Source: Candidatus Moraniibacteriota bacterium (lineage in GTDB: Bacteria; Patescibacteriota; Minisyncoccia; Moranbacterales; GCA-2747515). Taken from it: DNA of 64,000 nt. The stretch is taken from the NCBI GenBank assembly GCA_023133275.1, contig JAGLWU010000021.1:1341-65340 (forward strand), read 5' to 3'. The notes under the pieces were generated by a model that worked only from the letters and a program-made list of their open reading frames with translations, ran no database searches and was not told the origin of the DNA. This document shows, piece by piece, positions 35,222 through 62,446 of this stretch. Within the stretch, counting starts at the first letter, position 1; each line of letters opens with the position of its first letter. The position numbers and the translations under genes are program-made.

Positions 35222-35256
35222 TTGACTTGACATAATAATAATAATATAAATTTACA
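35222..35256 (+). promoter_or_regulatory. Promoter cassette copy a: TTGACtTGACA + (AAT)4 + TATAAAT
   Basis: cTTGACAtaataataataatataaat. Same cassette at 44122, 52582, 57121 and 62421. Confidence 0.55.
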
Positions 35257-35300
35257 CTGGAGCTTTAGTTATCATACTAACTTTTACCAAAGAGGATGTT

Positions 35301-35645
35301 ATGAAAACATTTACTAAAACTGAATATTTCTTTCAGCAAGTTCTTTTGAGTATCAAAGAGTTAAAAAAAAGAACTTTTAGCCCAGGTATTAAAGTGACGC
35401 GTTTTTATGAAAAAAATAAATGTACAGGGATCTCGATGAATTTCATCGAGATAAATGGGAGGCATGAGGAAATAAAAGAAATTGAAGAAAGTATTGAAAT
35501 AAACTGTCCAATGAAATATTGGGAATGCAACAACGCATTTTTCAATTATCAAGGTTTTCATAATTCTCCAAATCGAAGTTATCCAAAATTTGGAAAAACC
35601 GAGGATGGAAGAAGTTGGGAATCACAACTTCAAGTTCCTATGTAG
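35301..35645 (+). CDS. Hypothetical small Cys-containing protein (cassette-driven ORF a)
   Basis: 114 aa. AGAGGA RBS-like sequence. Followed by the terminator at 35666-35707. Confidence 0.45.
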   Translation: MKTFTKTEYFFQQVLLSIKELKKRTFSPGIKVTRFYEKNKCTGISMNFIEINGRHEEIKEIEESIEINCPMKYWECNNAFFNYQGFHNSPNRSYPKFGKTEDGRSWESQLQVPM

Positions 35646-35665
35646 CTGACTACAACCAGCAAAAA

Positions 35666-35707
35666 GCCCGCAAACCTCGAAAGGAATGCGGGCATCTTTT
35701 ATTTTTG
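35666..35707 (+). terminator. Rho-independent terminator
   Basis: GCCCGCA-aacctcgaaaggaa-TGCGGGC followed by ATCTTTTATTTTTG. Confidence 0.7.
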
Positions 35708-35736
35708 AATCTTAAAAACTTTTTACTTTAAATTTC

Positions 35737-36924
35737 CTAACTAATTATAATCTTCCGAAAAAACTTTTTCCCAACTTTCAAAACTTTTTCATTGTCATTT
35801 TCAGAAATAATATATTTTACATCAGAAACTTTTTCACCATCAATAGAAACACCACCTTGTTCAATCTTCCGCCTCGCATCACCTTTACTATTTGCTCCAC
35901 CAGAATTAACCAAAAAATCTAAAATACTTTCACCATTTTTAACTTTAAATTTCTCAACATCATCAACAACATTCTTTTCAATAAATTTCTTTCGCAAAAA
36001 TTCCGTTTCGCCACCTGCAATTTTCTCATCATAATAAATAGAAATAATAGCTTGAGCCAATTTAATTTTCTGCTTCCGTTTATCCTCTATTTTTAAAATT
36101 TCCGCAACTTCGCCCAAATCAATCCGTGTACAATGCACAAAATAATCCTCAATAACATCATCAGGCATGTTCATAATTTTCTCACCCATCTCCCTCGCAG
36201 GATCCGTAAGATTAATCGTATTTCCCCAACTACTACTCATCTTCCGACCATCCATCCCAGAAATAATATTAGTCATTATAATATCTTGTGGCTCTTGATC
36301 AAATTTACCCTGCAAAGTTCGCCCCGCCAAAAGATTGAAACGCTGATCAGTTCCACCCAATTCAACATCCGCCCGCACAGCTACACTGTCATAGCCCTGC
36401 ATTAACGGATATAAAACTTCACGCAAAGAAACTCGCTTCCCCGCGTCTAAACGCTTCTTAATATTATCTCGAGAAATAAATTCATGCACAGAAAAACAAT
36501 CAGCATGTTCACCAATTTCTTTGTAACTCAATTTATCTAACCAATCTGCATTATAAACAACTTCAACTTTTTTAATGTCTAAAATTTTTGCCGCCTGTTC
36601 TTTATAGCTTTTCATATTTTCTTCAACCATTTCATGAGTTAACATTGGTCGCTCCGAATCTTTATCAGAAGTATCACCAATCACACCCGTCGCATTTCCA
36701 ACAAGTAAAACAATTTGATGACCAAGTTTTTGAAAGTCTAAAAGCTTAAGTAAAGGCACAGCTCTTCCCAAATGCAAATTTGAACTTGTCGGATCAATTC
36801 CAAATTTAATTCTCAATTTTTCTCCAGACAAAAGTTTTTTTCGTAAATTTTCTTTTCCAATAATCTCATCCGCTCCCCGCTCTAAAATTTCATCAACTTT
36901 TTTTTCCAATTCTTTTTTATCCAT
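35737..36924 (-). CDS. tyrS: Tyrosyl-tRNA synthetase with C-terminal S4 domain
   Basis: Class I HIGH-type motif (SSNLHLGRAV). KMSKS variant (KMSSS). GTDQ. C-terminal S4-like RRKIEQGGVSIDGEKV. Confidence 0.9.
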   Translation of the reverse strand: MDKKELEKKVDEILERGADEIIGKENLRKKLLSGEKLRIKFGIDPTSSNLHLGRAVPLLKLLDFQKLGHQIVLLVGNATGVIGDTSDKDSERPMLTHEMVEENMKSYKEQAAKILDIKKVEVVYNADWLDKLSYKEIGEHADCFSVHEFISRDNIKKRLDAGKRVSLREVLYPLMQGYDSVAVRADVELGGTDQRFNLLAGRTLQGKFDQEPQDIIMTNIISGMDGRKMSSSWGNTINLTDPAREMGEKIMNMPDDVIEDYFVHCTRIDLGEVAEILKIEDKRKQKIKLAQAIISIYYDEKIAGGETEFLRKKFIEKNVVDDVEKFKVKNGESILDFLVNSGGANSKGDARRKIEQGGVSIDGEKVSDVKYIISENDNEKVLKVGKKFFRKIIIS

Positions 36925-37008
36925 ACAATATCAATTAACTTATTTTCTAATTCGTAGAGACAAGGCATGCCTTGTCTCTACAGTCAAAAAACAATTCGAA
37001 TTACCAAT

Positions 37009-37584
37009 CTAATAATTTTCCACAAAAAGTTCAAAGTGAGCCTGCGAATGAGCACATGACGGGCATTCCTCTAAAGCATCAGTTCCCTCATGTAAATAAC
37101 CACAATTTTGACATTTCCAAATAACTTTCTCCTCCCGTTTAAAAACCTTTCCGTTCTCAACATTTGCCAACAACTTCAAATAACGAGTTTCATGAGCCTT
37201 TTCAACTTTCGCGATATTTCGCCAAACCATCGCAATATCCACAAAACCCTCTTCCTCCGCAATATCCGCAAAAGCTGGATACAATTCCGTCCATTCTTCA
37301 TTTTCACCTTCAACCGACGCTTTCAAATTTTCCGCAGTCGTTCCAATTTTTCCCGCTGGATAAGTTGCTGTAATTTCCACCATTCGCCCTTCTAAAAACT
37401 TAAAAAAACGTTTTGCATGTTCTTTTTCATTTAAAGCTGTTTCTGCAAAAAATACTGAGATTTGTTCAAAGCCGTCTTTTTTCGCCTGCTTTGAAAAATA
37501 GTCATAACGCATCCGAGCTTGTGATTCTCCTGCAAATGATTTTAATAAATTTTGCTCCGTCTGTGTTCCTTTTAAACTTTCCAT
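37009..37584 (-). CDS. rbr: Rubrerythrin
   Basis: Ferritin-like diiron four-helix region (EKEHAKRF...EGENEEWTELY...EKAHETRY). C-terminal rubredoxin-like CQNCGY...CPSC. Confidence 0.85.
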   Translation of the reverse strand: MESLKGTQTEQNLLKSFAGESQARMRYDYFSKQAKKDGFEQISVFFAETALNEKEHAKRFFKFLEGRMVEITATYPAGKIGTTAENLKASVEGENEEWTELYPAFADIAEEEGFVDIAMVWRNIAKVEKAHETRYLKLLANVENGKVFKREEKVIWKCQNCGYLHEGTDALEECPSCAHSQAHFELFVENY

Positions 37585-37663
37585 AGTTTTATTTTTTAAT
37601 AATTATTTTACTGTAATTAATAGTATCATCTCTTGAAAAATAAATAAAGAGAGAAAATTTCAT

Positions 37664-37692
37664 TTGACTTATTTTAAAAATTTAGTTATATT
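37664..37692 (+). promoter_or_regulatory. Canonical sigma70-type promoter for the 28-aa peptide gene
   Basis: TTGACT (37664-37669), a 17-nt spacer, then TATATT (37687-37692). SD AAGGAGG lies 6 nt before the ATG. Confidence 0.6.
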
Positions 37693-37726
37693 TACTTATC
37701 ATCAAAAAAATAAAAGGAGGCACATT

Positions 37727-37813
37727 ATGGATTTTGGAGAATGGATCCTGCTCACTGTTGCAACACCAATAATAGCGTACACACTGTATCGTGTTTTCAC
37801 TCTTAAAGGGTGA
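37727..37813 (+). CDS. 28-aa hydrophobic peptide (type I toxin-like small membrane protein)
   Basis: MDFGEWILLTVATPIIAYTLYRVFTLKG. Perfect SD. Noticeably higher GC than its surroundings. An antisense ORF-like frame on the minus strand. Confidence 0.5.
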   Translation: MDFGEWILLTVATPIIAYTLYRVFTLKG

Positions 37814-37916
37814 ACTCCTGATGAATGTTCCTCAGGTGAAGAACAAAAAGACAATAACGCATGAGTTGCCAGCAGTTTGTAACACATGCATTTTTTAATT
37901 TATTTTCAAAAAAAGT

Positions 37917-37960
37917 GCTCGCCACACAGGTTTTTAAAACTACAAGCCCAATTTAAACAA
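37917..37960. repeat. Repeat module A2 (GTGCTCGCCACAnnnnTTTTnAAAAnTACAAGnC), copy R3
   Basis: About 80% identical to 56090-56135. Confidence 0.6.
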
Positions 37961-38398
37961 ACTTAAGTCACCACTTAATTCACTCTTTATCAAACTTTCA
38001 ATATTAATATTATCAGCTAATTTTATATTAAAATTAAAAGTAAAATTATCTTTAGCCTCTTTATCATCTCTTTCAATACCTTCTATTATATCTACACCAT
38101 GAGCTATAACATGAATATTATAAAATATTTCTCTACCATCTTTTGAAAAAAAATTATAAGAAATAAATCCTTTTTCCTCAAGATATTGTAAAGAATTATA
38201 AAGATTATAGAAGTTATTATCAGATATAATTAATAAATCCTTTTCTTCATCTTTCAATGGCTCAAATTTTAATTCATCTTTATCATTTATGAATTCAAGA
38301 TCAAAATTTAAACTAATATCATTTTCAATCCCTCTTCTACGTTTACGTTCATAAAAATACAAAAGTAAATCACCCGAAATTTTCTTAATCGTTTTCAT
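37940..38398 (-). CDS. Hypothetical protein
   Basis: 152 aa ORF. No motif recognised. Confidence 0.4.
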   Translation of the reverse strand: MKTIKKISGDLLLYFYERKRRRGIENDISLNFDLEFINDKDELKFEPLKDEEKDLLIISDNNFYNLYNSLQYLEEKGFISYNFFSKDGREIFYNIHVIAHGVDIIEGIERDDKEAKDNFTFNFNIKLADNINIESLIKSELSGDLSLFKLGL

Positions 38399-38423
38399 AA
38401 AATCTAAATTATTAATTACAAAT

Positions 38424-39473
38424 TTATTTAATCACTAACTTTTCAATCCCCAGCATCTCTTCCCCAATCAAAAAACTCAACATCGCACCACCACCAGTCG
38501 ACACAAAAGAAATATCCTCCCAATAACCACTCTCCGCCAAAGCCTGCACACTCTCCCCACCACCAATCAAACTAAAAGCATCTTTATTCCCCGCTACAAA
38601 CTTAACCAATTCCCGAGTTCCAATATCATAAGGCTTTTCCTCAAATTTACCCATCGGACCATTCCACACAATCGTTTTCGCCTGCTCAATTTTTTCCCGA
38701 AAAAGCTCAATCGTTTTTGGACCAATATCCAAAGTTTCGCCCGTAAAATCCACTGGCAAAATAACCTTTTCCGAAAAATTAATCCCCTGTTCAATTGCTT
38801 CAACCGCCACTCGTCCACCAACCAAAACATAATTATAACTTTTTTCAAACATCTTAATCAAAGGTAATTTAGTCGCAATTTTTGACCCACCAATAATCGC
38901 CACCGCTGGACGTTTTTGTAAATTTTTAACTTTTTCTAAATTTTCAATTTCCTTTTGTAACCAAATTCCACCAAATGATGGAAGAATATCAGTAATTACA
39001 TAAAGAGACGCATGTCCACGATGATCAACGCCAAAAGAATCATTCACATAAATATCAAATGGTTCAGCCAACTTTTTTGCAAATTTAACATCACCTTTTT
39101 TCTCGCCAGAATAAAAACGAACATTTTCCAAAAGAATAATTTGATTTTCACCATTTTCAATTTCACCTTTCACTTTTTCACCAATACAATCATTCGCAAA
39201 AAAAACTTTTCTTTTCAAAATTCTTTCAACATCGTCAGCAATTTGTTTTACCGAAAATTCTGGTTTAATCTCACCATCCGGACGACCAAAATGAGTCAAC
39301 AAAGCAATTTTTCTCGCTCCATTTTCAATTAACCATTCTAAACTTTCTTTGGCAGCAAGAATTTTATGCGACTCAATCACATCACCTTTTTCATCAAGCG
39401 AAACATTAAAATCAACTCTCAATAAAACATTTTTTCCATTCACATCAGCGTTTTGTATTTTTTTAATATTCAT
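38424..39473 (-). CDS. pgk: Phosphoglycerate kinase
   Basis: N-terminal LLRVDFNVSL. Substrate-binding and hinge motifs. C-terminal IGGGESVQA...GGGAML. Start set at the internal ATG (MNIKKIQ...). The longer ORF would overlap dfx. Confidence 0.85.
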   Translation of the reverse strand: MNIKKIQNADVNGKNVLLRVDFNVSLDEKGDVIESHKILAAKESLEWLIENGARKIALLTHFGRPDGEIKPEFSVKQIADDVERILKRKVFFANDCIGEKVKGEIENGENQIILLENVRFYSGEKKGDVKFAKKLAEPFDIYVNDSFGVDHRGHASLYVITDILPSFGGIWLQKEIENLEKVKNLQKRPAVAIIGGSKIATKLPLIKMFEKSYNYVLVGGRVAVEAIEQGINFSEKVILPVDFTGETLDIGPKTIELFREKIEQAKTIVWNGPMGKFEEKPYDIGTRELVKFVAGNKDAFSLIGGGESVQALAESGYWEDISFVSTGGGAMLSFLIGEEMLGIEKLVIK

Positions 39474-39508
39474 AAATATTCTAAATTTAAAAAATTTATC
39501 ATTAAAAA

Positions 39509-39889
39509 TTATTTTATCGCTTTCCATAAACCATGCAAATTACAATACGCTCGAACTACAAAATCATCTGATTTGATAGCGAAAAATACCTCTGGCTGAT
39601 CACCAACTTTCAAAAAAACTTTCTGATTTTCACCACCAGCAATAATTTCAATCCACTCAATAAAATGATCCTCTTCCATCGGATGTGCCACTTCACCAAC
39701 TTTAATTTTAATTCCCCCCTTAATTTTTTCAACAACTGGAACATGCTTTTCAATCGTTGCATCTTCAATATTTTCAATCTGCAAATTCATCAGTTGATTG
39801 CAACAAACCAATTCCCCCACTCCAACATGATTAATTTGAACAATATTTCCACAAATTAAACATTTATAAACCTGATGTTTCTCAGTCAT
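39509..39889 (-). CDS. dfx: Desulfoferrodoxin (2Fe superoxide reductase)
   Basis: N-terminal desulforedoxin-like CxxC...CC (CLICGN...VCCN). SOR centre EKHVP...HPMEEDH...CNLHG. Confidence 0.85.
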   Translation of the reverse strand: MTEKHQVYKCLICGNIVQINHVGVGELVCCNQLMNLQIENIEDATIEKHVPVVEKIKGGIKIKVGEVAHPMEEDHFIEWIEIIAGGENQKVFLKVGDQPEVFFAIKSDDFVVRAYCNLHGLWKAIK

Positions 39890-39964
39890 ATTTTTATATT
39901 TTGAAAAATTACCATTTTATTATAACACAAACTTTTTACAAAAATTTTTAAATTATTTCCAATT

Positions 39965-40125
39965 GTGCTCGCCGCACGGACTTTTCACCATTTAACTTTT
40001 TTCGAAATTCTGAAACATTTCCGTAATATCTCTTGTCATTCAAATTACCTGTCATTCTGAACGTAGTAAATTTATTGCAGATAAATTTATGTAGTGAAGA
40101 ATCCCCCACAGAGAATCATAAAACT
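39965..40125. repeat. Mosaic repeat element (modules A+C+E), copy R4
   Basis: GTGCTCGCCGCACGGAC. CCTGTCATTCTGAACG. TTATGTAGTGAAGAATCCCCCACAGAGAATCATAAAAC (module E, also at 55949-55985). Confidence 0.75.
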
Positions 40126-40148
40126 TTAAAATTAAACAAAAAGTGAAT

Positions 40149-40865
40149 TTACTTCATCACCTGATTTTTCCAATCCTTCGGCATTTTCTCAATCGCATAA
40201 CGCAGAGCCGTTCGAGGCATAATTTTCTTATTTTTCAAAACAAAATCAAAAACTTCCTGAGAATAAATATTAGCTGCTTCTTTCAAAGTCCAACCATAAC
40301 CTTTTTGAACAAGATCGTCTTCATCTTGAATATCAATAAAATATTGCGAAACTTCAAAAATATTTTTTAAATAAATTTTTTCTTTTTGCTTTATGGAATG
40401 AATAAAAATAATACTCGCCGCCCGTCTCACCCAACGATTTTTTGACCTTCTCCATTTTTCAGTTTTCAATAAAAGTTCTGGAAAGGTAAAAATTAATTCG
40501 CCAAAAGCGTGCGTGCAAAAATCATCACATTTACTCCAAGTGTTTACATATTTTTTCAACCAATTTTCAAAAATAATAAAATCTGACTTTTTAAATTCGT
40601 CTTTTTTCTTTCTCGCCCAAGTAAAAGTGATTGTTGATTCTTCTAAATAATTTGATTTTAAAAGTTCTTCGCAAAGATTAAAAATTTCTTTTTTATTTAA
40701 ATCTTTTATTTTTTTCCAATGTTTGCTGGCAATTTTCCGCACAATTCCAGCACGCACACCATAAAGTTCAATCGGTTCTTTGAAAAATCTTTCTAAACCT
40801 TTCTTGTATTCTAAATCAATATTTTCTTTTAATTCTTTCCGAACTTTTTGTAAGTTTTTTTTCAT
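40149..40865 (-). CDS. DNA alkylation repair (AlkC/AlkD-like HEAT-repeat) protein
   Basis: Length and helical-repeat character. Motif region WVRRAASIIF...VQKGYGWTLKEAA is typical of the DNA_alkylation family. Confidence 0.55.
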   Translation of the reverse strand: MKKNLQKVRKELKENIDLEYKKGLERFFKEPIELYGVRAGIVRKIASKHWKKIKDLNKKEIFNLCEELLKSNYLEESTITFTWARKKKDEFKKSDFIIFENWLKKYVNTWSKCDDFCTHAFGELIFTFPELLLKTEKWRRSKNRWVRRAASIIFIHSIKQKEKIYLKNIFEVSQYFIDIQDEDDLVQKGYGWTLKEAANIYSQEVFDFVLKNKKIMPRTALRYAIEKMPKDWKNQVMK

Positions 40866-41127
40866 TTTACCTAAAATAATTTAGTTTATTTTAAACTTAG
40901 GACGCTTTTTTCTTTTAAAATAAACTTCTTCATCTAATTTTGGCAATTCAACAATACCTTTCTCTAACTCTACATTATTTTTCTCCTCATTATTATCAAC
41001 ATCAAATATCTTTCTTTGAATAAAATCTAATCTTTTTAAATCTAAAGTATTTGAAGACTTAATTGCAGCCACCATACTTTCACACAAATCTTCATTTGGA
41101 CTTATTTTAGCATAATCACTTATACGT

Positions 41128-41790: not shown

Positions 41791-41804
41791 AAATCAAAAA
41801 TTAT

Positions 41805-44012: not shown

Positions 44013-44121
44013 ATTTAAATAAGTTTATTTTGATAAAAAAATTTTAAACGACTTATTTAAATAATAGTTTATAAATTGCCTTTTGTAAATTTATTTAAAG
44101 TTTTAAATCAAAAAATTCTAC

Positions 44122-44150
44122 TTGACATAATAATAATAATAATAATAATG
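44122..44150 (+). promoter_or_regulatory. Promoter cassette copy b: TTGACA + (AAT)7 + GTAAAC
   Basis: cTTGACAtaataataataataataataatgtaaac. Longest microsatellite of the five copies. Confidence 0.55.
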
Positions 44151-44235
44151 TAAACTTAATTGTTAGTTTCTGATTAAATAATCAGAGTAAAAAAATTCTA
44201 ACTTTATTATTCTCTTTAAATAAATTGGAGAAAGT

Positions 44236-44373
44236 CATGAGAATGAAAGAAATGAGAGAATTAATCATTGTATTGCTTTGTCTATCAATACTATTCTTTT
44301 ATAAGGAAAACGATACTAATCCACCTAATACTACAACAAAAAAAATATTCAACTCTCGCACATCAAATAAGTA
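44236..44373 (+). CDS. 45-aa small secreted/membrane peptide (cassette-driven ORF b)
   Basis: MRMKEMRELIIVLLCLSILFFYKENDTNPPNTTTKKIFNSRTSNK. GGAGAAAG RBS. Terminator hairpin CCTAAAGCATA...TGCTTTAGG + T-run at 44380-44420. Confidence 0.5.
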
Positions 44374-44437
44374 AAACAAGCCTAAAGCATATAGATATTA
44401 TGCTTTAGGTTCTTTTTTATTAAAAAAGAAAAATTAT

Positions 44438-45429: not shown

Positions 45430-45640
45430 GTGCTCGCCGCACGGGCTTTTCTGAACAAGGGGTCATAACCCCTTGTTTAACCCCTACAAAATTATACGAC
45501 CCCCCGACCTGTCATTCCGAAAAATATATTTTCTTTCAGAGCGTAGTGATGAACTAGAAAATAATTTATCCGGAATCTATACTTTAAGATTAAAGAAAAT
45601 TTAAAATACAATACACTTCCTAAATTCCGGATAATTTTTT
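45430..45640. repeat. Mosaic repeat element (modules A+B1+C+D), copy R5
   Basis: GTGCTCGCCGCACGGGC. TTCTGAACAAGGGGTCATAACCCCTTGTTTAACC. CCTGTCATTCCGAAAAATA. ATTTATCCGGAATCTATACTTTAAGATTAAAGAAAATTTAAA. ATTCCGGATAA is the inverse of TTATCCGGAAT. Confidence 0.8.
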
Positions 45641-49751: not shown

Positions 49752-51050
49752 ATGAAAAAAAATAATCCAAGTCAGAAAGAAAAAGAAACAGTTTGCGTTG
49801 TAGGTTTAGGATATGTTGGTTTGCCACTAGCAGTTCGAACAAAAGAAAAAGGATATAATGTAATCGGTTTAGAATTAGATAAAAAAAAGATTGAATTAAT
49901 AAATAAAAAACAATCGCCGATCGAAGAAGTGTATCTTTATGAAAATCTTCCTAAACATCCGATTCGAGCAACAGACAATGCAAAGGAAATAAAAAAAGCA
50001 GATATCGTTTTAATCTGCGTACCAACGCCAGTTGATGAATATTATAATCCTGATTTAACACTGGTTCAAAAATCTTGCGAAATGGTAGCTAAAAATTTAA
50101 AAAAAGGAGCCTTGGTAGTCTTAGAGTCAACAGTAAATCCGGGAGTTTCCGAGGAAGTTGTTCATCCAATTTTTGAAAGTTTCGGACATAAAATTGGTTC
50201 TGATGTTTTTATCGCCCATTGCCCCGAAAGAATTAATCCCGGTGATTCAAAATGGAATGTAACAAATATTCCACGTGTCGTCGGAGCTTTCACGCAAAAA
50301 GGATTGAAAAAATCTGTTGAATTTTACGAGGACATAATTGATGGAGAAATTCGTCCGATGAAACATATCCGTGAAGCCGAAGCTTGCAAAGTTGTAGAAA
50401 ATTCTTTTCGTGATGTAAACATTGCCTTTGTCAATGAGTTGGCAAAATCTTTTGACGCCCTTGATATTGATATTAAAGATGTGATTGATGGAGCGAGTAC
50501 GAAACCTTTTGCGTTTATGCCTCACTATCCATCTTGCGGAATTGGCGGGCATTGTATTCCAGTTGATCCTTATTATTTAATTGAGAGAGCTAAACGTGCT
50601 GGTTTTGATCATAAATTTTTGCGAACTTCTCGAGCGATTAACAACTCTATGCCAGCTTACACCGTTGAACTTTTACAGGATAAATTAAATGAAGTGAAAA
50701 TGCCTTTAAATGGAACGAACGTTGGAATTTTAGGAATTGCTTATAAGCCCAATGTAGATGATGACCGAGAATCGCCTTATTATGACATTGTAAATGCTTT
50801 GGAAAAACATGGTGCAAAAATTCATTCTTTCGACCCGCACATTAAAGAAAAATCTTCAGTGAAAACTTTAGCAACATTATTAAAAAAATCTGATGCAATA
50901 ATTCTTGTTACTAATCATAAAGAGTTTGATGAGATCAATGGAAAGTTGTTAAAGAAAAATAAGATAAAAGTTATTATTGACGGTAAAAATACTTTGAATA
51001 AAAAAGATATAGAAAAAAATGGTGTTGTTTATAAGGGGATTGGGAGATAA
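49752..51050 (+). CDS. Nucleotide-sugar dehydrogenase (UDP-glucose/UDP-ManNAc/GDP-mannose dehydrogenase family)
   Basis: N-terminal Rossmann VCVVGLGYVGLPLAV. Catalytic Cys region (PHYPSCGIGGHCIP). Central and C-terminal UDPG_MGDP_dh domains. Confidence 0.85.
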   Translation: MKKNNPSQKEKETVCVVGLGYVGLPLAVRTKEKGYNVIGLELDKKKIELINKKQSPIEEVYLYENLPKHPIRATDNAKEIKKADIVLICVPTPVDEYYNPDLTLVQKSCEMVAKNLKKGALVVLESTVNPGVSEEVVHPIFESFGHKIGSDVFIAHCPERINPGDSKWNVTNIPRVVGAFTQKGLKKSVEFYEDIIDGEIRPMKHIREAEACKVVENSFRDVNIAFVNELAKSFDALDIDIKDVIDGASTKPFAFMPHYPSCGIGGHCIPVDPYYLIERAKRAGFDHKFLRTSRAINNSMPAYTVELLQDKLNEVKMPLNGTNVGILGIAYKPNVDDDRESPYYDIVNALEKHGAKIHSFDPHIKEKSSVKTLATLLKKSDAIILVTNHKEFDEINGKLLKKNKIKVIIDGKNTLNKKDIEKNGVVYKGIGR

Positions 51051-52581: not shown

Positions 52582-52606
52582 TTGACATAATAATAATAAT
52601 AATATA
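52582..52606 (+). promoter_or_regulatory. Promoter cassette copy c: TTGACA + (AAT)5 + ATAAAA
   Basis: gcTTGACAtaataataataataatataaaatg. Confidence 0.55.
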
Positions 52607-52722
52607 AAATGAAATATTACGATTTCTTAAATTAGCGATCGTAAATAGTTTCTTAAAAATAAGAAATAAAGTTTTTCAACGATTGATTTATTTTTCATAA
52701 ACAAATTCAATAGGAGTAAAAG

Positions 52723-53001
52723 ATGAGTGAAATAAAAAGAGTACTCGGAAATCCAGACATTATTTTCAGAAAAATGATAAAAGAAAAAGGACATGAGAGG
52801 CTTATAAAACTCGCCATTGTAACTTGGTGTCCTAATGAAGCTGCAAAACCAGTAGAATTTCAATACCAAATTGTAGGTGTCGCCGATGAAGAAAGAAATA
52901 GCATCTCTCTTAAAGGACGACTTGTTGATAATTATGATTTGGCAGAACATCAAGGAACCAAAGCCTTTAAGGCAATAGAATTAGCTCTGATCAATTCATA
53001 A
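52723..53001 (+). CDS. Hypothetical small protein (cassette-driven ORF c)
   Basis: 92 aa. AGGAG RBS 7 nt upstream. Two downstream hairpins. Preferred over the antisense ORF 52627..52953. Confidence 0.45.
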   Translation: MSEIKRVLGNPDIIFRKMIKEKGHERLIKLAIVTWCPNEAAKPVEFQYQIVGVADEERNSISLKGRLVDNYDLAEHQGTKAFKAIELALINS

Positions 53002-53093
53002 TGTGATTTGATTAGATTGAGAAGTCAGACCTCAAAAATCTGACTTCAGTAATTAAGCATTTCAAATTAATTTTTGGAATATTTATAGCTAAT

Positions 53094-53126
53094 AAAAAAC
53101 CACCAAATTTACTCGGTGGTTTTTTA
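53094..53126. terminator. Bidirectional rho-independent terminator between ORF c (+) and rplY (-)
   Basis: AAAAAACCACC-aaatttactc-GGTGGTTTTTT. U-runs on both strands. Confidence 0.7.
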
Positions 53127-53150
53127 TTTTTAAGAAGTTTTCAAAAAAGA

Positions 53151-54210: not shown

Positions 54211-54282
54211 AAGATTATTTTAATATATTTACAGAAAAAAAGCAAATTGGAAACTAAAGAATTACGATTTAAGATTTATGAA

Positions 54283-55798: not shown

Positions 55799-55828
55799 AT
55801 TGTTTATTTTAAAGTTTAAAAAATAATT

Positions 55829-55985
55829 GTGCTCGCCGCACGGGCTTTTCTGAAACAATGGATCATGACCCCTTGTTGAAATTCTAAAAATTTTCTGTCA
55901 TTTTTACTGTCATTCTGAACGGAATAATTTTTATAAAATAAAAATTATGTAGTGAAAAATCCCCCACAGAACACCACGAAACATT
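55829..55985. repeat. Mosaic repeat element (modules A+B1+C+E), copy R6
   Basis: GTGCTCGCCGCACGGGC. TTCTGAAACAATGGATCATGACCCCTTGTTGAAATTCTAAAA. TGTCATTCTGAACGG. TTATGTAGTGAAAAATCCCCCACAGAACACCACGAAAC. Confidence 0.8.
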
Positions 55986-56089
55986 CACTTTCCTCTTCAC
56001 AAGTTTACTACCAATCTATCATAAATAAAAAAAATTAGCAATCTCTATGTTCGAGTGCCAATTTATAGTCTATTTAAAAAATCAAAAAA

Positions 56090-56135
56090 GTGCTCGCCAC
56101 AGAAACTTTTGAAAATACAAGTCAATTTCATGATT
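56090..56135. repeat. Repeat module A2, copy R7
   Basis: GTGCTCGCCACAGAAACTTTTGAAAATACAAGTCAATTT. Compare 37917-37960. Confidence 0.6.
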
Positions 56136-56167
56136 TCAAAATATTTAAAAATTATATCTTCCTAATT

Positions 56168-57127
56168 TTAATTTTTAACATCCAAATAAGCCCTCCTAAC
56201 CGCCAAATTAATTTTTGTCGGTCGAAATTTAACATCCAAATAATTCTTAAGCTTTCGCAAAAATAAATAAATATTCAAATAAATTTTCCAAAAACCCTTA
56301 CCGTGTTTACGAAAAAATAAAATACCTGATAAAACTAACCAATAAATTTTCTGCGACTGATTTTCCTCGCTTTGCTCTTGATGATAAACTTTTGCACTCG
56401 GAACAATCAAATTTTTCAATTCAGCTTTTTTCACTCGCAAAGATAAATCTGCATCCTCATAATAAAGAAAAAAAAATTCATCAAATAATCCAACTTTCTC
56501 AAAAACTTTTTTACTAATCAACATCGCACAACCTGTTACATATTCTGTTTCTTCTACATCTGTGTAGGGAACGGTTTGAAACCGTTCCCTACCAAACACG
56601 ACTTGAAACCATTTCCTACCAAACAATGATATACAATCAAAATGTTCCGCCCTCATTTTCCACCAATTTATTTTTCCACCACAGAACCAAATATTTTTAT
56701 ATTTTAAATCTGAATAAATCACAGGACTTACTAATCCAATTTCACTTTCATCTTTAATAGAATCAATCAATTTTGAAATTGTGTTTTTTCGCACCAATGC
56801 ATCATTGTTCAAAAGAAAAACATAATCTGCGCTATTTTCAAAAGCAAATTTTATACCAACATTATTTCCCGCTCCGAATCCGAGATTTTTTTTGTTTTTA
56901 ATAAAATAAATTTTTGAAAAGTTTTTTTCACTTGAACAATGGGTTGCAACCCATTGTTCAGCTAGATTTAAAGAATTGTCAGTAGAATTATTATCCACTA
57001 AAATTATTTCTAAATTTTGATAATTTGAATCAACTACACTTTTAATAGTTTTTAGTAAATCTGTTCCGCCATTGTAATTTAGAATTATGACAAATATTTT
57101 TGGTTTTTTTGGAATTGTACTTGACAT
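56168..57127 (-). CDS. GT2-family glycosyltransferase carrying an in-frame palindrome/tandem-repeat insert
   Basis: KIFVIILNYNGGTDLLKTIKSVVDSNYQNLEIILVDNNSTDNS (GT2 N-terminus). DxD YYEDAD. N-terminus MSSTIPKKPK shared with 61255..62427. Confidence 0.8.
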   Translation of the reverse strand: MSSTIPKKPKIFVIILNYNGGTDLLKTIKSVVDSNYQNLEIILVDNNSTDNSLNLAEQWVATHCSSEKNFSKIYFIKNKKNLGFGAGNNVGIKFAFENSADYVFLLNNDALVRKNTISKLIDSIKDESEIGLVSPVIYSDLKYKNIWFCGGKINWWKMRAEHFDCISLFGRKWFQVVFGRERFQTVPYTDVEETEYVTGCAMLISKKVFEKVGLFDEFFFLYYEDADLSLRVKKAELKNLIVPSAKVYHQEQSEENQSQKIYWLVLSGILFFRKHGKGFWKIYLNIYLFLRKLKNYLDVKFRPTKINLAVRRAYLDVKN

Positions 57128-57145
57128 AATAATAATAATTTAAAC
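57101..57145 (+). promoter_or_regulatory. Promoter cassette copy d (TTGACA + (AAT)4 + TTTAAAC), overlapping the divergent GT2 start codon
   Basis: tggtttttttggaattgtacTTGACAtaataataataatttaaac. The GT2 ATG is the reverse complement of the CAT inside TTGACAT. Confidence 0.55.
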
Positions 57146-57197
57146 TTACTTATTGGTGATAAACTGAACATTAACAAAAACATTAACGGAGGTCATC

Positions 57198-57596
57198 ATG
57201 TCATCTGATTATCCAGAAATTAATCATAATCTCGGAGAAAACGGCTACGTCATCTACGGAGAAACATACTCCTCTTTCATTAAATATGAATATCAGCTAA
57301 TACTAGGTATGATATTTACTTGCTTTGTAAGAGAGGGTTCATGGTCATTGAAGGTGAAATGGTCAGATAAAATTATAGAACCTGGCCACATCTTAAATAC
57401 CACAGAAATCCCATTTATTGATGTATTATTTGATTATCCAGTTATTAATGATTTTCTTGGATCCCAACCTTATGTGCTTCATTGTTTTAAAAGTTATGGA
57501 TACAAAAAAATACTCAAAGAGATGGATAAATATCGATTGATCTCATATACTAACAAACCAACAATTATGACTATATATATATATCTCCTCACGTAG
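57198..57596 (+). CDS. Hypothetical protein (cassette-driven ORF d)
   Basis: 132 aa. GGAGG RBS 7 nt upstream. Confidence 0.45.
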   Translation: MSSDYPEINHNLGENGYVIYGETYSSFIKYEYQLILGMIFTCFVREGSWSLKVKWSDKIIEPGHILNTTEIPFIDVLFDYPVINDFLGSQPYVLHCFKSYGYKKILKEMDKYRLISYTNKPTIMTIYIYLLT

Positions 57597-57741
57597 CCCG
57601 ACTCTATTTTGAGAATTTCTTCAAAAGACCTGTAGATAAGAATCTCATTTTGGAACCTATCAGAGTCTAAACCTGCACAATGTTCACGCCACCAACAAAA
57701 ACAGGTCTTGCAAAATCATGCGGAACCCGTTTTTAAATTTC

Positions 57742-58116
57742 CTAACTCTTAATCCCCAACCTCTTTTTCGCAATTTTATATTGTTTAGAATTCAACTGAC
57801 CTGCCTCACGCATTTCCTCGATTTGCTTCAACATTTTTTCCTTGTCTTCCCCACCTTTCTGACCCATCTTCCCAAACGCCTGAGCAAAAACTTCTTTCCG
57901 TTTTTCAGGACTCATTTTTTTCAAACCTTTAATTGCCATTTTTTGCATCATTCCCAATTTTGGCATTCCAGGCATTTCTCCTGCCAAAATCTGATCAATC
58001 ATTTCATCTGAAATTTCTGGAAGTTGTCCTCCCATAAAATCTTCTGCCTGTTTTTTAACCTGCACTGGATCAATATTTTGATCTTTTTTCTTCTTAAACA
58101 AATCTGTTATTCCCAT
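57742..58116 (-). CDS. Small Met/Lys-rich hypothetical protein downstream of secDF
   Basis: 124 aa. GMPKLGMMQKMAIKGLKKM low-complexity. No confident family. Confidence 0.35.
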   Translation of the reverse strand: MGITDLFKKKKDQNIDPVQVKKQAEDFMGGQLPEISDEMIDQILAGEMPGMPKLGMMQKMAIKGLKKMSPEKRKEVFAQAFGKMGQKGGEDKEKMLKQIEEMREAGQLNSKQYKIAKKRLGIKS

Positions 58117-58148
58117 ATTTTTAATGTTAAATTATTAATTCTTAGTTA

Positions 58149-60770
58149 CTATTTCTTATCTTTCTTATATCTAAAAATGCTAGCAATAAAAGCTGTTGCC
58201 ACGAACATTGATGAATAAGTCCCTGCAATCACACCAACTAACATTGCAATCGCAAAACTCTGCAATGACTCACCACCGAACAAAATAACTGATACCAACA
58301 CAACAACCACCGTAAGCGAAGTATTCATTGATCTCGCCAAAGATTCATTCAACGAACGATTCAACAACTTCTCAAATTTTCCAGTCTCTCGTGTACGAAT
58401 AACATTTTCCCGAATACGATCATAAACCACAATCGTATCATTCACAGAATAACCTAAAATTGTCAGCAAAGCCGCAACAAATGGAATTCCAATTTCAATA
58501 TTGTAAAAATAACCCAAAAATGCAAATACTCCCAACACAATAATTATATCATGAGTCAACGCCAATACCGCTCCAATACCATAATTCCAAGATGAAACAG
58601 GAAAAGAAACTTTACGAAAAGCTATAGCAATGTAAATCAGAATAGCTATCACCGAAAGAATAATCGCTTTGAACGCCCCGCTTTTTAATTGTTCAGAAAT
58701 AGTCGCTCCGATAAAATCAGTTCGTAATTGCTCAGCCTGAGGATCGATTTCTCTCACTGCCGTTAAAACTCTTTGATTAAATTCTTCACTCGCTTGTTTG
58801 TATCGAATAATAATGTGATTATTATCACTCTCTTGCAAAGTAAAACTTTCATTGCAACCATCTTCACCTATGATTTGACAAACTTTTTCCGTATCTGGCA
58901 TTCCAATACCATCTGAAATTTTAAACTCAGTCAAAGTTCCACCAACAAAATCAATTCCTAATTTTAAGCCGAAATTTGAAAGTGCAAAAATACTTATTCC
59001 AATCAAACCAGCTGAAAAAATGTAAGTAAACTTTCTCTTATTAATAATTTGCAAAAACTTTTTTTCTTTAGCATTTTCAATTTCAACCTTTTTCTTAAAA
59101 CCAAAAATTAACCAAGTATTATTTTCTAACCAATCTCGAGAAATAAATTTAACAATAATTTTCACTAAAACAATCGCCGTGAACATTGAAATCAACACAC
59201 CAATAATCAAAATTAAAGCAAAGCCTTTCACAAAACCAGCGCCGATCATCATCAAGATGAAAGATGTAATAATCGTAGAATAATTACCATCACGAATAGA
59301 TGACCACGCACGTTCAAAACCTTCGTTCACTGAATATTTCAAAGATTTTCCTTTTTTCAATTCTTCCTTGATTCTTTCAAAAATGAGAATATTTGCATCC
59401 ACCGCCATACCAACGGATAAAATAAGTCCCGCAATTCCTGCTAAAGTTAAAGTAATTGCCATTCCTTGAGGCATCGTTCCTGAAATTTTAAAAATTGAAA
59501 CAATGGTCGTTGCATAAATCATCAAAGCTACTGCCGCCACAACACCAAATACTCGATAATAAAAAATCATGTAAATCATCGTCAAAATCAAACCGATCAA
59601 TCCAGCTTTCAGTCCCATAGCCAAGGATTCCATTCCCAATGATGCTCCAATACTCTGCTGTGAAACTAATTTAATTGGCACTGGCAATGCACCCTCATTC
59701 ATTCTTTTCACTAAATTTTTTGCCTCTTCAACCGTAAAATTTCCACTAATCACCGCTTGACCTGTTGTAATTTCATCGTTGACAACTGGTGCACTTATTA
59801 CTTCATTATCAAGAAAAATAGCTACCGTTTTTTCTAAATTTCGTTTTGTAATTTCTGCAAAAAGTTTTGTACCCTCATCATTAAATTCTAAACTAACACT
59901 TGGAGTACCTAATCCAACTCCGCCACCAGAAAAACTAACATCCGCTCGCTCCAAGTGTTTTCCATCCAAATCAGTCGCTTTATATTTTTCTGGAACTTTT
60001 TTAAAAAAATCTAAAGAATATAAAATTTTTGCTTTAATTTTTTTTTCTTCTCCCTCACCTTGAGTCTCTAATTTCTTAACAAGCAAATAACTTTCGTCTG
60101 TTTCAAGTATTCCATTGTACACAGAACCATTATTTAAATCATCTGAAAAAATAACATCATCAATAGAACTTGATAATTGTCCTTTTTCAAAAAATTGCAA
60201 ATCCTCATCAGAAATATTTAAACCAATCTTTGTATTTTCTTCATTGTAAATATCATCAAAATTCTCACCATTATTAATTCTATCCAAAACTGCTTGAGCA
60301 TTCTTTTTTACAAATTGCTCATTCACAGAAACATAAATTTTCTTTTCTTCCTCCAATTCTTCCTCAGTTTTTTCCTCTCTAAATTGTAAAAATGGAGTTT
60401 TATCAATCACATTTTTCACATCTGCAACATCCTCCGCTCCAGGAAATTCTACAATAAGAAAATTCTGATCACCACGTTTTGCATGCTGAACAACTGGCTC
60501 ACCAACACCATAAGCATTTACTCGCCGCTCAACAACCGCTTGCACAGAATCAATCGCTTCACCTTTTTTATCATCAGGAACTTGCGACAAATCCATTTCA
60601 TATTCAAGGTGTAATCCTCCCTGTAAATCAAGTCCCAAATTAATTTGAAATTTATCTAAACTCTCTTGAGCTTTCGCGGGTAAGTATGGTATTTTCGGCA
60701 CTGCAATTCCGCCCACCAATATTGCGAAAAGTACCACTAAAATAAACTTTTGTCTAATTTTCTTATTCAT
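58149..60770 (-). CDS. secDF: Protein translocase subunit SecDF (fused)
   Basis: SecD N-terminus (LGLDLQGGLHLEYEMD). Large periplasmic domain. Two 6-TM bundles. SecF start region GIDFVGGTLTEF. 873 aa. Confidence 0.9.
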   Translation of the reverse strand: MNKKIRQKFILVVLFAILVGGIAVPKIPYLPAKAQESLDKFQINLGLDLQGGLHLEYEMDLSQVPDDKKGEAIDSVQAVVERRVNAYGVGEPVVQHAKRGDQNFLIVEFPGAEDVADVKNVIDKTPFLQFREEKTEEELEEEKKIYVSVNEQFVKKNAQAVLDRINNGENFDDIYNEENTKIGLNISDEDLQFFEKGQLSSSIDDVIFSDDLNNGSVYNGILETDESYLLVKKLETQGEGEEKKIKAKILYSLDFFKKVPEKYKATDLDGKHLERADVSFSGGGVGLGTPSVSLEFNDEGTKLFAEITKRNLEKTVAIFLDNEVISAPVVNDEITTGQAVISGNFTVEEAKNLVKRMNEGALPVPIKLVSQQSIGASLGMESLAMGLKAGLIGLILTMIYMIFYYRVFGVVAAVALMIYATTIVSIFKISGTMPQGMAITLTLAGIAGLILSVGMAVDANILIFERIKEELKKGKSLKYSVNEGFERAWSSIRDGNYSTIITSFILMMIGAGFVKGFALILIIGVLISMFTAIVLVKIIVKFISRDWLENNTWLIFGFKKKVEIENAKEKKFLQIINKRKFTYIFSAGLIGISIFALSNFGLKLGIDFVGGTLTEFKISDGIGMPDTEKVCQIIGEDGCNESFTLQESDNNHIIIRYKQASEEFNQRVLTAVREIDPQAEQLRTDFIGATISEQLKSGAFKAIILSVIAILIYIAIAFRKVSFPVSSWNYGIGAVLALTHDIIIVLGVFAFLGYFYNIEIGIPFVAALLTILGYSVNDTIVVYDRIRENVIRTRETGKFEKLLNRSLNESLARSMNTSLTVVVVLVSVILFGGESLQSFAIAMLVGVIAGTYSSMFVATAFIASIFRYKKDKK

Positions 60771-60955
60771 ATTGTTTGTAATTTATTAAATTTCTTTGAA
60801 AAAAATTCTGCTTTATCATAAAACATTTTCGCAAACTATCTTTTGTAATTTTAACTAAGATGAATTTAAAAATATTTATCACACGATAAAAACAAAACTC
60901 GATAATTTCAAGCTTTTTTTATTCTACTATAAAAACTTAAGATTGTCATATTTTG

Positions 60956-61262
60956 TGCTCGCCGCACGGGCTTTTCAACAAAAGGTCATGGTCCCTTGTT
61001 GAAATTCTAAAACATTTTTGTTATCAAAATTTTAGGTTTGCCACTGGCAAACCCCTACAATTTTTTATCATTTAAGTTTCTTGTCATTCTAAACGGATTT
61101 ATTTTTTCTTTAGAAAAAATAAAGGAATGAAGATTCCCTCACGAAAAATCATTAAACTTTAAATTTACTAAAAGTATCAGAAAAACTTATCTAGATTCTT
61201 CACTTCATAAATTTTTTTACAAAAAATTTATTTCGTTCAGAATGACAGGAAATTTTAAAATT
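60956..61262. repeat. Mosaic repeat element (modules A+B1+F+C/C' inverted pair), copy R8
   Basis: GTGCTCGCCGCACGGGC. TTTTCAACAAAAGGTCATGGTCCCTTGTTGAAATTCTAAAA. GGTTTGCCACTGGCAAACC. TGTCATTCTAAACGG (61092) and inverse CGTTCAGAATGACAGG (61237). Confidence 0.8.
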
Positions 61263-62427
61263 TAATCTTCTCCTCCACAAACTCCAAAATTCTATCTTTA
61301 AAAACATCTTTATCAAACTTCTCCGCAGATTTTTTAATAATATTTTTATCATAAAAATTCTCATTATCCAAAAATCGTCGCACACCATCCGCCAAAACCT
61401 CAACCGTCGGAGCATTAAAAAACTCTCCCGTAACACCTTCCTGAACAATCTCCCTCGCTCCACCTTTCCGCAAAGCAATCACTGGCAATCTAGCATTCAA
61501 CGCCTCCACGCACACAATTCCAAAATCATCCTCAGACGGAAAAATAAACGCCCGAGAATTATTTAAAATTTTCTGTTTTACCTTTTCATCCACCCAACCT
61601 AAAATTTGAATATTTTTACCAGCAATTTTTTCTAAATGTTTTCTCTCCTCACCATCACCAATCACAATCAACGGCAAATTTAATTTATTAAAAGCTTTCA
61701 CAGTCAACACCACATTTTTATAAGTAGAAAGCCGAGAGATAATCATGAAAGGTTTTTTTGAGTTTTTTCCGCATCCTCCCTTTTCTGAACAAGGGGTCAT
61801 GACCCCTTGTTCATCAAAATAATTTTCTACAAATTCAACTGGTGGATAGATAATTTCTGAATCACGTCGATAATATTTAGAAATTCTCGCTTGAGTGTAT
61901 TTTGAATTTGCAATTAAAAAATCTGGTCGCTTACTCGCCTGTGCATCCCAAATCCGCAAATAACTTAAAATTTGTCGCACAATAAAATTACTTTTAAAAT
62001 TTTTATTTCGCTTTAGATATTTTTCATTTTCATCCCAAATAAAACGCATTGGCGAATGAATGTAAGCGATGTGTTTCGTGTCAACTCGAGTTACAATTCC
62101 CTTACTCCACGCTCCCGAACTGGAAATCACCAAATCAAAATCTCGCAAATTGTAAGTTTCCACTGCCGAAGCGTAAAAAGGTAAAAGCCACCGATGATGT
62201 TTTCGAATAAACTTTGGAAATTTTTGTAAAAAAGAAGTATGGATTTTTTTGTCTTCAAACATTTTCTTCATGTTTTTTTCGTCATAAAGCAAAGTGTAAA
62301 TCGGTGCTTCGGGAAATATTTCGCAAAGTGTTTCTAATACTTTTTCCGCCCCTCCTTGATAAATTAAAAAATCATGAACAAGAGCAATTTTTAAGTTTTT
62401 AGTTTTTTTTGGATTTGTACTTGACAT
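61255..62427 (-). CDS. GT4-family (glycosyl transferase group 1) glycosyltransferase with in-frame B1-repeat insertion
   Basis: Start at MSSTNPKKTKNLKIALVHDF (internal to the longer ORF). GT4 C-domain (AFIFPSEDDFGIVCVEAL). Bases 61779-61813 match repeat module B1 and encode EQGVMTPCSEKGGCG. Confidence 0.75.
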   Translation of the reverse strand: MSSTNPKKTKNLKIALVHDFLIYQGGAEKVLETLCEIFPEAPIYTLLYDEKNMKKMFEDKKIHTSFLQKFPKFIRKHHRWLLPFYASAVETYNLRDFDLVISSSGAWSKGIVTRVDTKHIAYIHSPMRFIWDENEKYLKRNKNFKSNFIVRQILSYLRIWDAQASKRPDFLIANSKYTQARISKYYRRDSEIIYPPVEFVENYFDEQGVMTPCSEKGGCGKNSKKPFMIISRLSTYKNVVLTVKAFNKLNLPLIVIGDGEERKHLEKIAGKNIQILGWVDEKVKQKILNNSRAFIFPSEDDFGIVCVEALNARLPVIALRKGGAREIVQEGVTGEFFNAPTVEVLADGVRRFLDNENFYDKNIIKKSAEKFDKDVFKDRILEFVEEKIKF

Positions 62428-62446
62428 AATAATAATATAAAATTCA
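62401..62446 (+). promoter_or_regulatory. Promoter cassette copy e (TTGACA + (AAT)3 + ATAAAA), overlapping the divergent GT4 start codon
   Basis: agtttttttttggatttgtacTTGACAtaataataatataaaattc. Confidence 0.55.

Follow-up and report, generated by a model that had tools for sequence, protein, structure and literature searches.

A candidate promoter family with an AAT-repeat spacer heads small orphan genes in a Candidatus Moraniibacteriota genome

Background

The length of a simple repeat in the spacer of a promoter can tune or switch transcription, as with the poly-A tract of vlp in Mycoplasma hyorhinis, the poly-G tract of porA in Neisseria and the poly-C tract of opc. Here, we describe five copies of a candidate promoter cassette of the form cTTGACAT(AAT)n in a 64,000-nucleotide stretch of DNA (contig JAGLWU010000021.1, positions 1,341 to 65,340; hereafter, the window) from a metagenome-assembled genome (MAG) of Candidatus Moraniibacteriota, a member of the Candidate Phyla Radiation (CPR, or Patescibacteria), which consists mostly of uncultivated episymbionts. 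The homopolymer-spaced promoters differ from these cassettes in that their tracts are mononucleotides that change in 1-nt steps, with high switching rates that have been demonstrated.

In functional design, the cassette appears closest to the divergent promoter of hifA and hifB in Haemophilus influenzae, where (TA)9-11 lies between the -35 and -10 boxes and the number of units sets their spacing (PMC2651432, which cites van Ham 1993 and Geluk 1998 for this system). The two are alike in having a repeat as the spacer and, at cassettes 4 and 5, in its position between a small plus-strand gene and a divergent minus-strand gene. They differ in the repeat, a dinucleotide of 9-11 units there and a trinucleotide of 3-7 units here, and in that switching has been demonstrated for hifA/hifB whereas for the window cassettes it would be a prediction. 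Furthermore, hifA/hifB is a single locus for a defined surface organelle in a pathogen, while the window has five paralogous promoters with unrelated orphan cargo in a CPR bacterium.

The vlhA genes of Mycoplasma gallisepticum carry (GAA)n on many paralogous promoters whose flanks are conserved irrespective of unit number; this tract is not part of the -35/-10 spacer but lies ~40 nt before the start site, and it must have 12 units (PMC6258824). A trinucleotide repeat at many paralogous promoters, with unit numbers that vary among paralogs and orthologs, is common to both systems, but vlhA is one homologous lipoprotein family, whereas the window cassettes have unrelated cargos and use the tract itself as the spacer. 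Membership of the vlhA-type GAA promoters was accordingly rejected on repeat position and cargo. A literature search found nothing on transcriptional control or population-level variation in CPR bacteria, and no report of Shine-Dalgarno (SD) usage classes or repeat-driven promoter variation in them. The features that appear to be new are the spacer of AAT units, the host from the CPR, orphan cargo that is unrelated and rapidly replaced, and the status of this gene class as the only one led by SD sites.

Results and discussion

Motif and geometry of the cassettes

The 16-mer TTGACATAATAATAAT occurs as an exact match at positions 35227, 44122, 52582, 57121 and 62421 of the window, on the plus strand only, and is followed through to AAT tracts of 4, 7, 5, 4 and 3 units, respectively, which are exactly the positions and unit numbers of the original prediction. 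These five copies, all intergenic and spanning 27 kb, compare with 0.01 copies expected from 100 dinucleotide shuffles. At 30% GC, (AAT)3 runs are common in the window, which might favor a chance low-complexity similarity; beyond the cassettes, however, no (AAT)n tract with n≥4 was found there, and chance was rejected on the shuffle expectation and on the conservation of the element in orthologs, with the restriction of the copies to one strand and to intergenic DNA, and the same downstream geometry at every copy, also counting against it. We regard it as a negligible prospect.

The -35 box is a perfect TTGACA in all five copies and in eight of eight orthologs at the one slot where tracts could be compared (see below). 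Downstream of the tract, the original prediction had listed TATAAA, GTAAAC or TTTAAAC; these can be refined to a single base followed by TAAANT in every copy, which in site order reads TAAATT, TAAACT, TAAAAT, TAAACT and TAAAAT. The whole stretch between the boxes is therefore t(AAT)n plus one base in 5/5 copies, a simple-sequence repeat, and the spacing from TTGACA to TAAANT is 14, 23, 17, 14 and 11 nt.

Cassette 1 (35222..35252) comprises TTGACA at 35227-35232, (AAT)4 at 35234-35245 and TAAATT at 35247-35252, with a spacer of 14; a TTGACT at 35222-35227 overlaps its -35 box and allows, by sequence, the alternative pairing TTGACT-17-TATAAA (35245-35250). In cassette 2 (44122..44156), TTGACA at 44122-44127 is followed by (AAT)7 at 44129-44149 and TAAACT at 44151-44156 with a spacer of 23, and AATAAT within the tract is an alternative -10 at a spacing of 16. 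Cassette 3 (52582..52610), made up of TTGACA at 52582-52587, (AAT)5 at 52589-52603 and TAAAAT at 52605-52610, is the sole copy with canonical spacing (17 nt; 11/12 consensus positions). Cassette 4 (57121..57146; TTGACA 57121-57126, (AAT)4 57128-57139, TAAACT 57141-57146) has a spacer of 14, and the minus-strand GT2 glycosyltransferase gene has its ATG at the CAT of 57125-57127. Cassette 5 (62421..62443; TTGACA 62421-62426, (AAT)3 62428-62436, TAAAAT 62438-62443) has a spacer of 11, its CAT at 62425-62427 supplies the true start codon (ATG) of the minus-strand GT4 glycosyltransferase gene, and a TTGTAC at 62415-62420 lies, by sequence, 17 nt from TAAAAT. All five are on the plus strand, and the two alternative -35 boxes, TTGACT at 35222 and TTGTAC at 62415, were read directly from the sequence. 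A consensus scan scored 52582 (TTGACA-17-TAAAAT) and 44122 (TTGACA-16-AATAAT) at 11/12 positions.

Taken as a whole, the cassette is best explained as a real sigma-70-type promoter family with a slippage-prone microsatellite spacer, an explanation that we judge on balance to be the probable one. In this layout, TTGACA would serve as a perfect -35 box and TAAANT as the -10 box, with t(AAT)n and one further base as the spacer between them. Replication slippage of whole AAT units would have moved the distance between the boxes in 3-nt steps, giving 11, 14, 14, 17 and 23 nt. That the repeat sets the spacing in 3-nt steps had been proposed in the original prediction, and the spacings and one ortholog pair that is one unit apart bear it out. 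Only n=5 would give the canonical 17 nt, and the remaining copies would be weakened; alternatively, the copies with other spacings might fire through overlapping signals, namely the extended -10-like TGaCATAAT, the second -35 boxes (TTGACT at 35222 and TTGTAC at 62415) or the AATAAT that lies within the seven-unit tract. Elsewhere in the window, ordinary promoters follow the canonical pattern (TTGACA-17-TATAGT, TTGACT-17-TATATT and TTGTCA-17-TATAAT), and TGnTATAAT forms are numerous. Because these other promoters have 17-nt spacers, often with TGn, the organism probably uses normal sigma-70 spacing. The motif with its geometry, the way it is conserved, the one-unit step between orthologs and the turnover of cargo are all direct observations; from these, we infer that the cassette would act as a transcription start signal with an output modulated by spacing.

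Small orphan genes with strong Shine-Dalgarno sites

Each cassette appears to head a self-contained unit that lies antisense between housekeeping operons and would consist of the promoter, a leader of 50-110 nt, a strong SD site, one small orphan open-reading frame (ORF) and a hairpin terminator. The plus-strand ORFs encode 114, 45, 92, 132 and 78 amino acids (aa), and their start codons lie 74, 115, 141, 77 and 92 nt from TTGACA, in agreement with the predicted lengths and the predicted distance of 74-141 nt. The earlier claims of an SD site and a terminator for each ORF also hold, with the sites AGAGGA, GGAGA, GGAGT, GGAGGT and AGAGGG in order, and with a 3′ hairpin and T-rich tail after all five ORFs, although a consensus terminator scan flags only two.

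Cargo 1 (35291..35693) has its SD site at 35291-35296, an orphan ORF of 114 aa at 35301-35645 and a terminator at 35666-35693. In cargo 2 (44227..44410), the SD site at 44227-44231 precedes the 45-aa ORF at 44237-44374, with its ATG at 44237 and one transmembrane-like segment, and the terminator is at 44380-44410. Cargo 3 (52713..53127) has an SD site at 52713-52717, an orphan ORF of 92 aa at 52723-53001 and a terminator at 53092-53127. Cargo 4 (57188..57733) combines an SD site at 57188-57193, an ORF of 132 aa at 57198-57596 and a hairpin at 57698-57733, while cargo 5 (62496..62819) has an SD site at 62496-62501, an ORF of 78 aa with two transmembrane-like segments at 62513-62749 and a terminator at 62797-62819. 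All five are on the plus strand. The original prediction had described the cassette ORFs as essentially the only plus-strand genes of the region, which is largely so, except that a 432-aa gene at 49752..51050, with no cassette, is also on this strand.

The SD sites set these genes apart from the others in the window. Essentially no SD site was found in 44 of the 49 window genes, whose starts follow A/T-rich leaders of ~20-35 nt, and the five strongest SD scores among the 49 belong to the five cassette ORFs, which are the sole strongly SD-led genes. The window holds no ribosomal RNA gene and so does not include the anti-SD end of 16S.

No similarity was found among the five cargo ORFs, as predicted, and none of them has a match in Pfam, PHROGs or NCBIfam; a tblastn search of two cargos against 50,697 phage records gave no match. 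Among 1.8 billion representatives, the 132-aa cargo has two significant homologs in addition to a truncated copy of itself. Its only distant match is P0123, a protein of 2321 aa with six matches to residues 22-58 (window 57261-57371), which suggests that P0123 may be a repeat-domain relative. Six of 12 cargos are predicted small membrane peptides. The GC content of the cargos matches that of the genome, and frame 0 has the best coding score of the six frames, yet scores below ordinary genes. An AlphaFold2 model of the 92-aa ORF, made without an alignment, was unusable (predicted local distance difference test score 46.6). A riboswitch or small-RNA reading of the leaders was dropped on the lack of an Rfam match and of any shared or unusually stable structure, the five leader folds having z-scores of +0.65 to -1.97 against shuffled sequence.

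Conservation and turnover at orthologous sites

Tract lengths were compared at the GT2 slot, the interval between the GT2 gene and a 124-aa gene in which cassette 4 lies, in eight genomes (the window included) whose GT2 proteins are 54-100% identical; the closest relative has no module at the sites of cassettes 2, 3 and 5, and synteny is broken at cassette 1. A count of cassettes in related genomes was among the checks suggested in the original prediction; a 65-kb stretch of the closest relative holds one. At the GT2 slot, all eight genomes retain TTGACA and, right after the spacer, a -10 hexamer, while the spacers differ. The window has (AAT)4 and TAAACT at 14 nt; L008 and L182 have (AAT)4 and TAAAAT, and L180 has (AAT)4 and TATAGT, each likewise at 14 nt; L181 has (AAT)5 and TAAGCT at 17 nt; L178 has the degenerate tract taataatataaaataatg and TAAAAT at 18 nt; L177 has a GAT repeat and TAAAAT at 20 nt; and L179 has a non-repeat spacer in a plain TTGACA-17-TATAGT promoter (TATAGT at 17 nt). 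In this comparison, the AAT spacer proves to be evolutionarily labile.

Beyond ~40 nt, the sequence of the slot is wholly different between genomes, and the cargos of 132, 152, 40, >32, 42, 86 and 85 aa are unrelated, except for the pair from the window and L181. As judged by sequence, the cargo is replaced in almost every species while the putative promoter stays, which agrees with the earlier view that the promoter is the shared unit. Between the window (n=4) and L181 (n=5), the tract differs by a single 3-nt indel, and the promoter and leader are otherwise ~90% identical, whereas the 132-aa cargo pair is only 47% identical in protein and ~60% in DNA. The 3′ intergenic sequence (window 57600-57741) is ~88% identical to that of L181, so that here the non-coding flanks are more constrained than the ORF.

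At other sites, the modules are absent from relatives. At the GT4 site, L008 has TTTTCAT in place of TTGACAT and no small ORF, although an AAT-like tract, CATAATAGTAATAAATAAT, is kept. At the LysM site, the whole cassette 2 module is absent from L183 and L184, and at the cassette 3 site, L185 lacks the cassette 3 module and has an HD-domain gene on the same strand instead; three window modules (cassettes 2, 3 and 5) are thus absent from the closest relative. The loss of TTGACA where relatives have no small ORF supports the promoter reading of the original prediction, and at these sites, TTGACA or the cassette and the SD-led ORF are present or absent together.

An alternative placing of the -10 box bears on the same comparison. 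The working promoter might be the extended -10 TGaCATAAT within TTGACATAAT, so that transcription would start inside the tract, tract length would have little effect and the AAT repeats would be merely an AT-rich initial transcribed region. All five copies contain TGnCATAAT, with TG one base upstream of the hexamer, and the scan pairs the TG-preceded CATAAT with upstream TTGTAA (35207) and TTTAAA (44102). TGnTATAAT promoters are common in the window, L179 uses CATAAT as the -10 box of a canonical TTGACA-17-CATAAT promoter, and intact ORFs behind the n=4 and n=3 copies would be explained. However, two of the eight GT2-slot orthologs (L177, TTGACATTTT; L179, TTGACAAAAT) no longer have CATAAT, while the hexamer after the spacer is kept in 8/8, and the constant one-base gap between the tract and TAAANT is left unexplained. 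We consider this alternative unlikely.

The cassette can also be read from the other strand. The minus-strand GT2 gene (56168..57127) has a start and first codons (M-S-S) that are the reverse complement of cTTGACAT, and the minus-strand GT4 gene (61255..62427) has its true start at the ATG at 62427, inside cassette 5, and not at the upstream ATG at 62487. The conserved unit might therefore mainly serve this strand, with (ATT)n-ATG-TCA-AGY as an AT-rich translation start (M-S-S) that is SD-less or near-leaderless, the tract setting the distance from the -10 box of that gene to its ATG, and any plus-strand promoter being secondary. In addition to CAT of TTGACAT being the real start codon of GT2 and GT4, an A or G always precedes cTTGACAT, making the third codon always Ser or Arg, and GT2 homologs retain an N-terminal MS[SR] at identities as low as 54%. 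Normal genes in this genome start after A/T-rich leaders with no SD site, and the tract CATAATAGTAATAAATAAT persists upstream of GT4 in L008 with neither TTGACA nor a small ORF; selection from the GT side could also account for the recurrence of n=4 at the GT2 slot.

At the remaining three sites, however, the ATG opens just 6-16 codons, 67-112 nt upstream of the real gene, and two of these three genes have their own promoter between the cassette and the gene. One is the 836-aa gene, with TTGTCA-17-TATAAT and a TG before the -10 box at 35136..35164 (minus strand), and the other is the LysM/LytR_C gene, with TTTACA-17-TATTAT at 44061..44089 (minus strand), which is kept in L183 and L184, both without cassette 2. 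Because each has its own promoter, the minus-strand genes at 35115 and 44012 are probably independent of the cassette. Furthermore, the GT2 start of L179 lies outside TTGACA, which is kept nonetheless, and TTGACA tracks the plus-strand ORF and not the minus-strand gene. A mainly minus-strand role thus seems to us a shade more unlikely than the extended -10. The short minus-strand ATG-TCA-AGY (M-S-S) frames at 35233-35186, 44128-44108 and 52588-52538 have 15, 6 and 16 codons, respectively, and could be similar to upstream ORFs or be remnants of copying.

Several points weigh against a promoter family with a slippage-prone spacer, which nevertheless remains our preferred explanation. The copies at 35227, 57121 and 62421 have no acceptable -10 box, with A at position 2 and T at position 6, at 16-18 nt from TTGACA in the consensus scan, and -10-like hexamers are plentiful in AT-rich sequence, which makes an assignment of the box by eye weak. 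The 14-nt spacing with (AAT)4 recurs in four GT2-slot species (the window, L008, L182 and L180), which looks like selection rather than decay, and the model leaves n=4 unexplained, although selection from the GT side may explain it. Two cassettes overlap minus-strand start codons, so that coding, or the other strand, may account for part of the conservation.

Possible duplication or mobility of the cassettes

The original prediction had considered the cassette to be a mobile or duplicated module. Duplication finds some encouragement in the contrast between five copies in 27 kb of the window and a single one over 65 kb in the closest relative, and in a 38-nt patch, consisting of the first nine codons and the cassette start, that is more similar within the window than between orthologs. 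Between the window's GT2 and GT4 sites (57095-57139 and 62395-62439), 34/38 positions of this patch match, against 31/38 between each site and its ortholog in L008 and 25/38 between the two sites within L008. Although their families are unrelated, GT2 and GT4 have a common N-terminus across it, MSST[IN]PKK[PT]K, a similarity that hints at short-patch copying (gene conversion) or parallel evolution.

Mobility fared less well. As a transposon-, integron- or phage-moron-like gene cassette with its own promoter, the unit would insert between operons, in line with modules that are present or absent between close relatives, with cargo that is swapped at one slot in nearly every species, with the difference in copy number noted above, and with a moron-like order of promoter, ORF and terminator. 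Phage morons are similarly self-contained, with promoter and terminator, run opposite to the surrounding operons and are variably present; here, though, the context is not that of a prophage, phage proteins show no similarity to the cargos and the base composition is native. A search for transposon-like ends came up empty, with no consistent terminal inverted or direct repeats flanking the modules, and no integrase, transposase or recombinase was seen among neighboring genes with Pfam domains. No cargo has a PHROG, phage or Pfam match, their GC is native, and viral contigs hold only single, chance-like matches to the motif. At the GT4 site, TTGACA differs from TTTTCA of the relative by two substitutions, for which a local origin suffices. 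We therefore consider a mobile cassette to be very unlikely.

The same motif in unrelated sequences

Database matches to the 17-mer of the motif in viral and metagenomic contigs served as a background set for tract geometry. The viral scan gave 29 contigs with one match each, showing no enrichment in phages, and the metagenomic matches were also single and mostly unrelated, with no close relative among the matches listed. In unrelated matches listed, a -10 hexamer follows one base after the tract in 9/16 with n=5, in 5/98 with n=3 and in 1/12 with n=4. Since the -10 box lies one base past the tract for every n in the window, these background counts indicate that it belongs to the tract and that n=5 is the probable functional archetype. 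The geometry in the window is what would be expected if a promoter with 17-nt spacing had later gained or lost whole units.

Unrelated promoters of the TTGACAT(AAT)5-N-TATAAT type resemble the cassettes in the same 17-mer and, at n=5, in a -10 box 17 nt from the -35 box, but they occur as one copy per contig in contigs unrelated to the window. As far as sequence allows us to judge, this motif is a generic strong-promoter solution that arises repeatedly. In one contig family with 43-55% GC (L028, L031, L034, L036, L037, L047, L054, L088, L114 and L141; seven viral and three metagenomic), an AT-rich upstream region precedes CTTGACAT(AAT)5, after which come a ATAGATTAG-like or ATAATCTG-like sequence and an SD-led gene, with n=5 throughout. 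Four Clostridia-like contigs with 27-29% GC (L119, from 437; L169, from 11000; L166, from 5; and L110, from 556) carry a CTTGACAT(AAT)n promoter. In L119, L166 and L169, gTATAAT directly follows the tract, and in L110, it is followed by agtg with the extended -10 TGTATAAT. These four share a leader hairpin, AGGGCAAnTnGCCC ... GAGGTTGGTCRCA, which has no significant Rfam match, while their SD-led small ORFs differ between loci. Two AAT units aside, the L119 (n=5) and L169 (n=7) loci are nearly identical.

Possible phase variation

Given a repeat that lies exactly between -35 and -10, with spacing classes that differ by multiples of 3, the cassettes might be true contingency loci, as the original prediction had suggested, in which AAT slippage would switch the small genes ON (n=5, 17 nt) or OFF (other n) reversibly within a population, perhaps together with the divergent glycosyltransferases. 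The one-unit difference between the window and L181, with conserved flanks, is consistent with this, as is the occurrence of another trinucleotide repeat, (GAT)n, in the same spacer of L177. The ORFs behind mis-spaced promoters are intact, as reversible OFF states predict; at 30% GC, where ~8% of codons are expected to be stops, we estimate that 132 open codons would be very unlikely by chance. Unrelated low-GC loci that are nearly identical also vary (L119, n=5, versus L169, n=7), and two of the cassettes abut glycosyltransferase genes. Such genes are a classic class of phase-variable targets.

Against this, the tracts are short. Only the n=7 and n=5 copies reach the PhasomeIt cut-off of at least 5 units for longer repeat units (PMC6321876), which was set for other species and unit lengths, while those with n=4, 4 and 3 fall below it, and trinucleotide tracts of ≤4 units were not considered phase-variable in H. 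influenzae (PMC2651432). The identical (AAT)4 in four species with GT2 proteins 54-78% identical suggests stability. Three or four independent assemblies have no length difference, but these are consensus sequences of clones 100% identical to the window over 2-6 kb and carry no information on heterogeneity. We therefore treat contingency loci as a doubtful though real possibility, and high-frequency switching of the AAT tracts as plausible to the same limited degree.

Slightly less probable again is the larger picture of a small CPR phasome, in which a set of orphan genes that turn over rapidly and depend on SD sites would be switched stochastically by slippage in the spacer common to them. 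Many of these genes would encode tiny membrane peptides, in a genome whose ordinary genes would be translated without SD sites, and with the tract directly upstream of the starts of two surface glycosyltransferases, one slippage event could retune both divergent genes. If true, such a system would be the first case of phase variation driven by repeats to be described in the Candidate Phyla Radiation, and one with a trinucleotide spacer.

Other features of the window

The window, in which the minus strand holds nearly all genes, is part of a 77.7-kb metagenome scaffold, and the nearest genome matches of the host MAG are also Candidatus Moraniibacteriota MAGs. In the nearest-genome comparison, SecDF is 81% identical to the copy in GCA_942490825.1. 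An Rfam search of the whole window and a tRNA scan gave no matches.

A second repeat family in the window is built on the palindrome GTGCTCGCCGCACGGGCTTTTC, which often has AACAAGGGGTCATGACCCCTTGTT and CTGTCATTCTGAACGG modules after it. This composite element fills long intergenic gaps and resembles the Rickettsia palindromic elements. Copies are found at 12489-12512, 45454-45477, 55854-55877 and 61788-61811, and 22-mers of the family at 26749, 32151, 39965, 45430, 55829 and 60955, with a copy at about 14302 in L008. Two copies are in frame within coding sequence, in the ORF at 11723..13843 and in the GT4 gene. The GT2 of relatives carries the same palindrome (protein segment QGVMTPC in P0003 and P0004), while the GT2 of the window is without it.

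Conclusions

The cassette genes form a recognizable class, with a perfect -35 box, a repeat spacer, a long leader, a strong SD site, an orphan ORF and a terminator, that stands apart from the SD-less bulk of the genome. If the switching is real, contingency-locus biology would extend from pathogens to ultra-small symbionts. If it is not, the cassettes would provide a natural series of spacers, 11 to 23 nt long, in which to study the building and erosion of promoters by microsatellites, and the family would also bear on the origin of orphan genes behind promoters.

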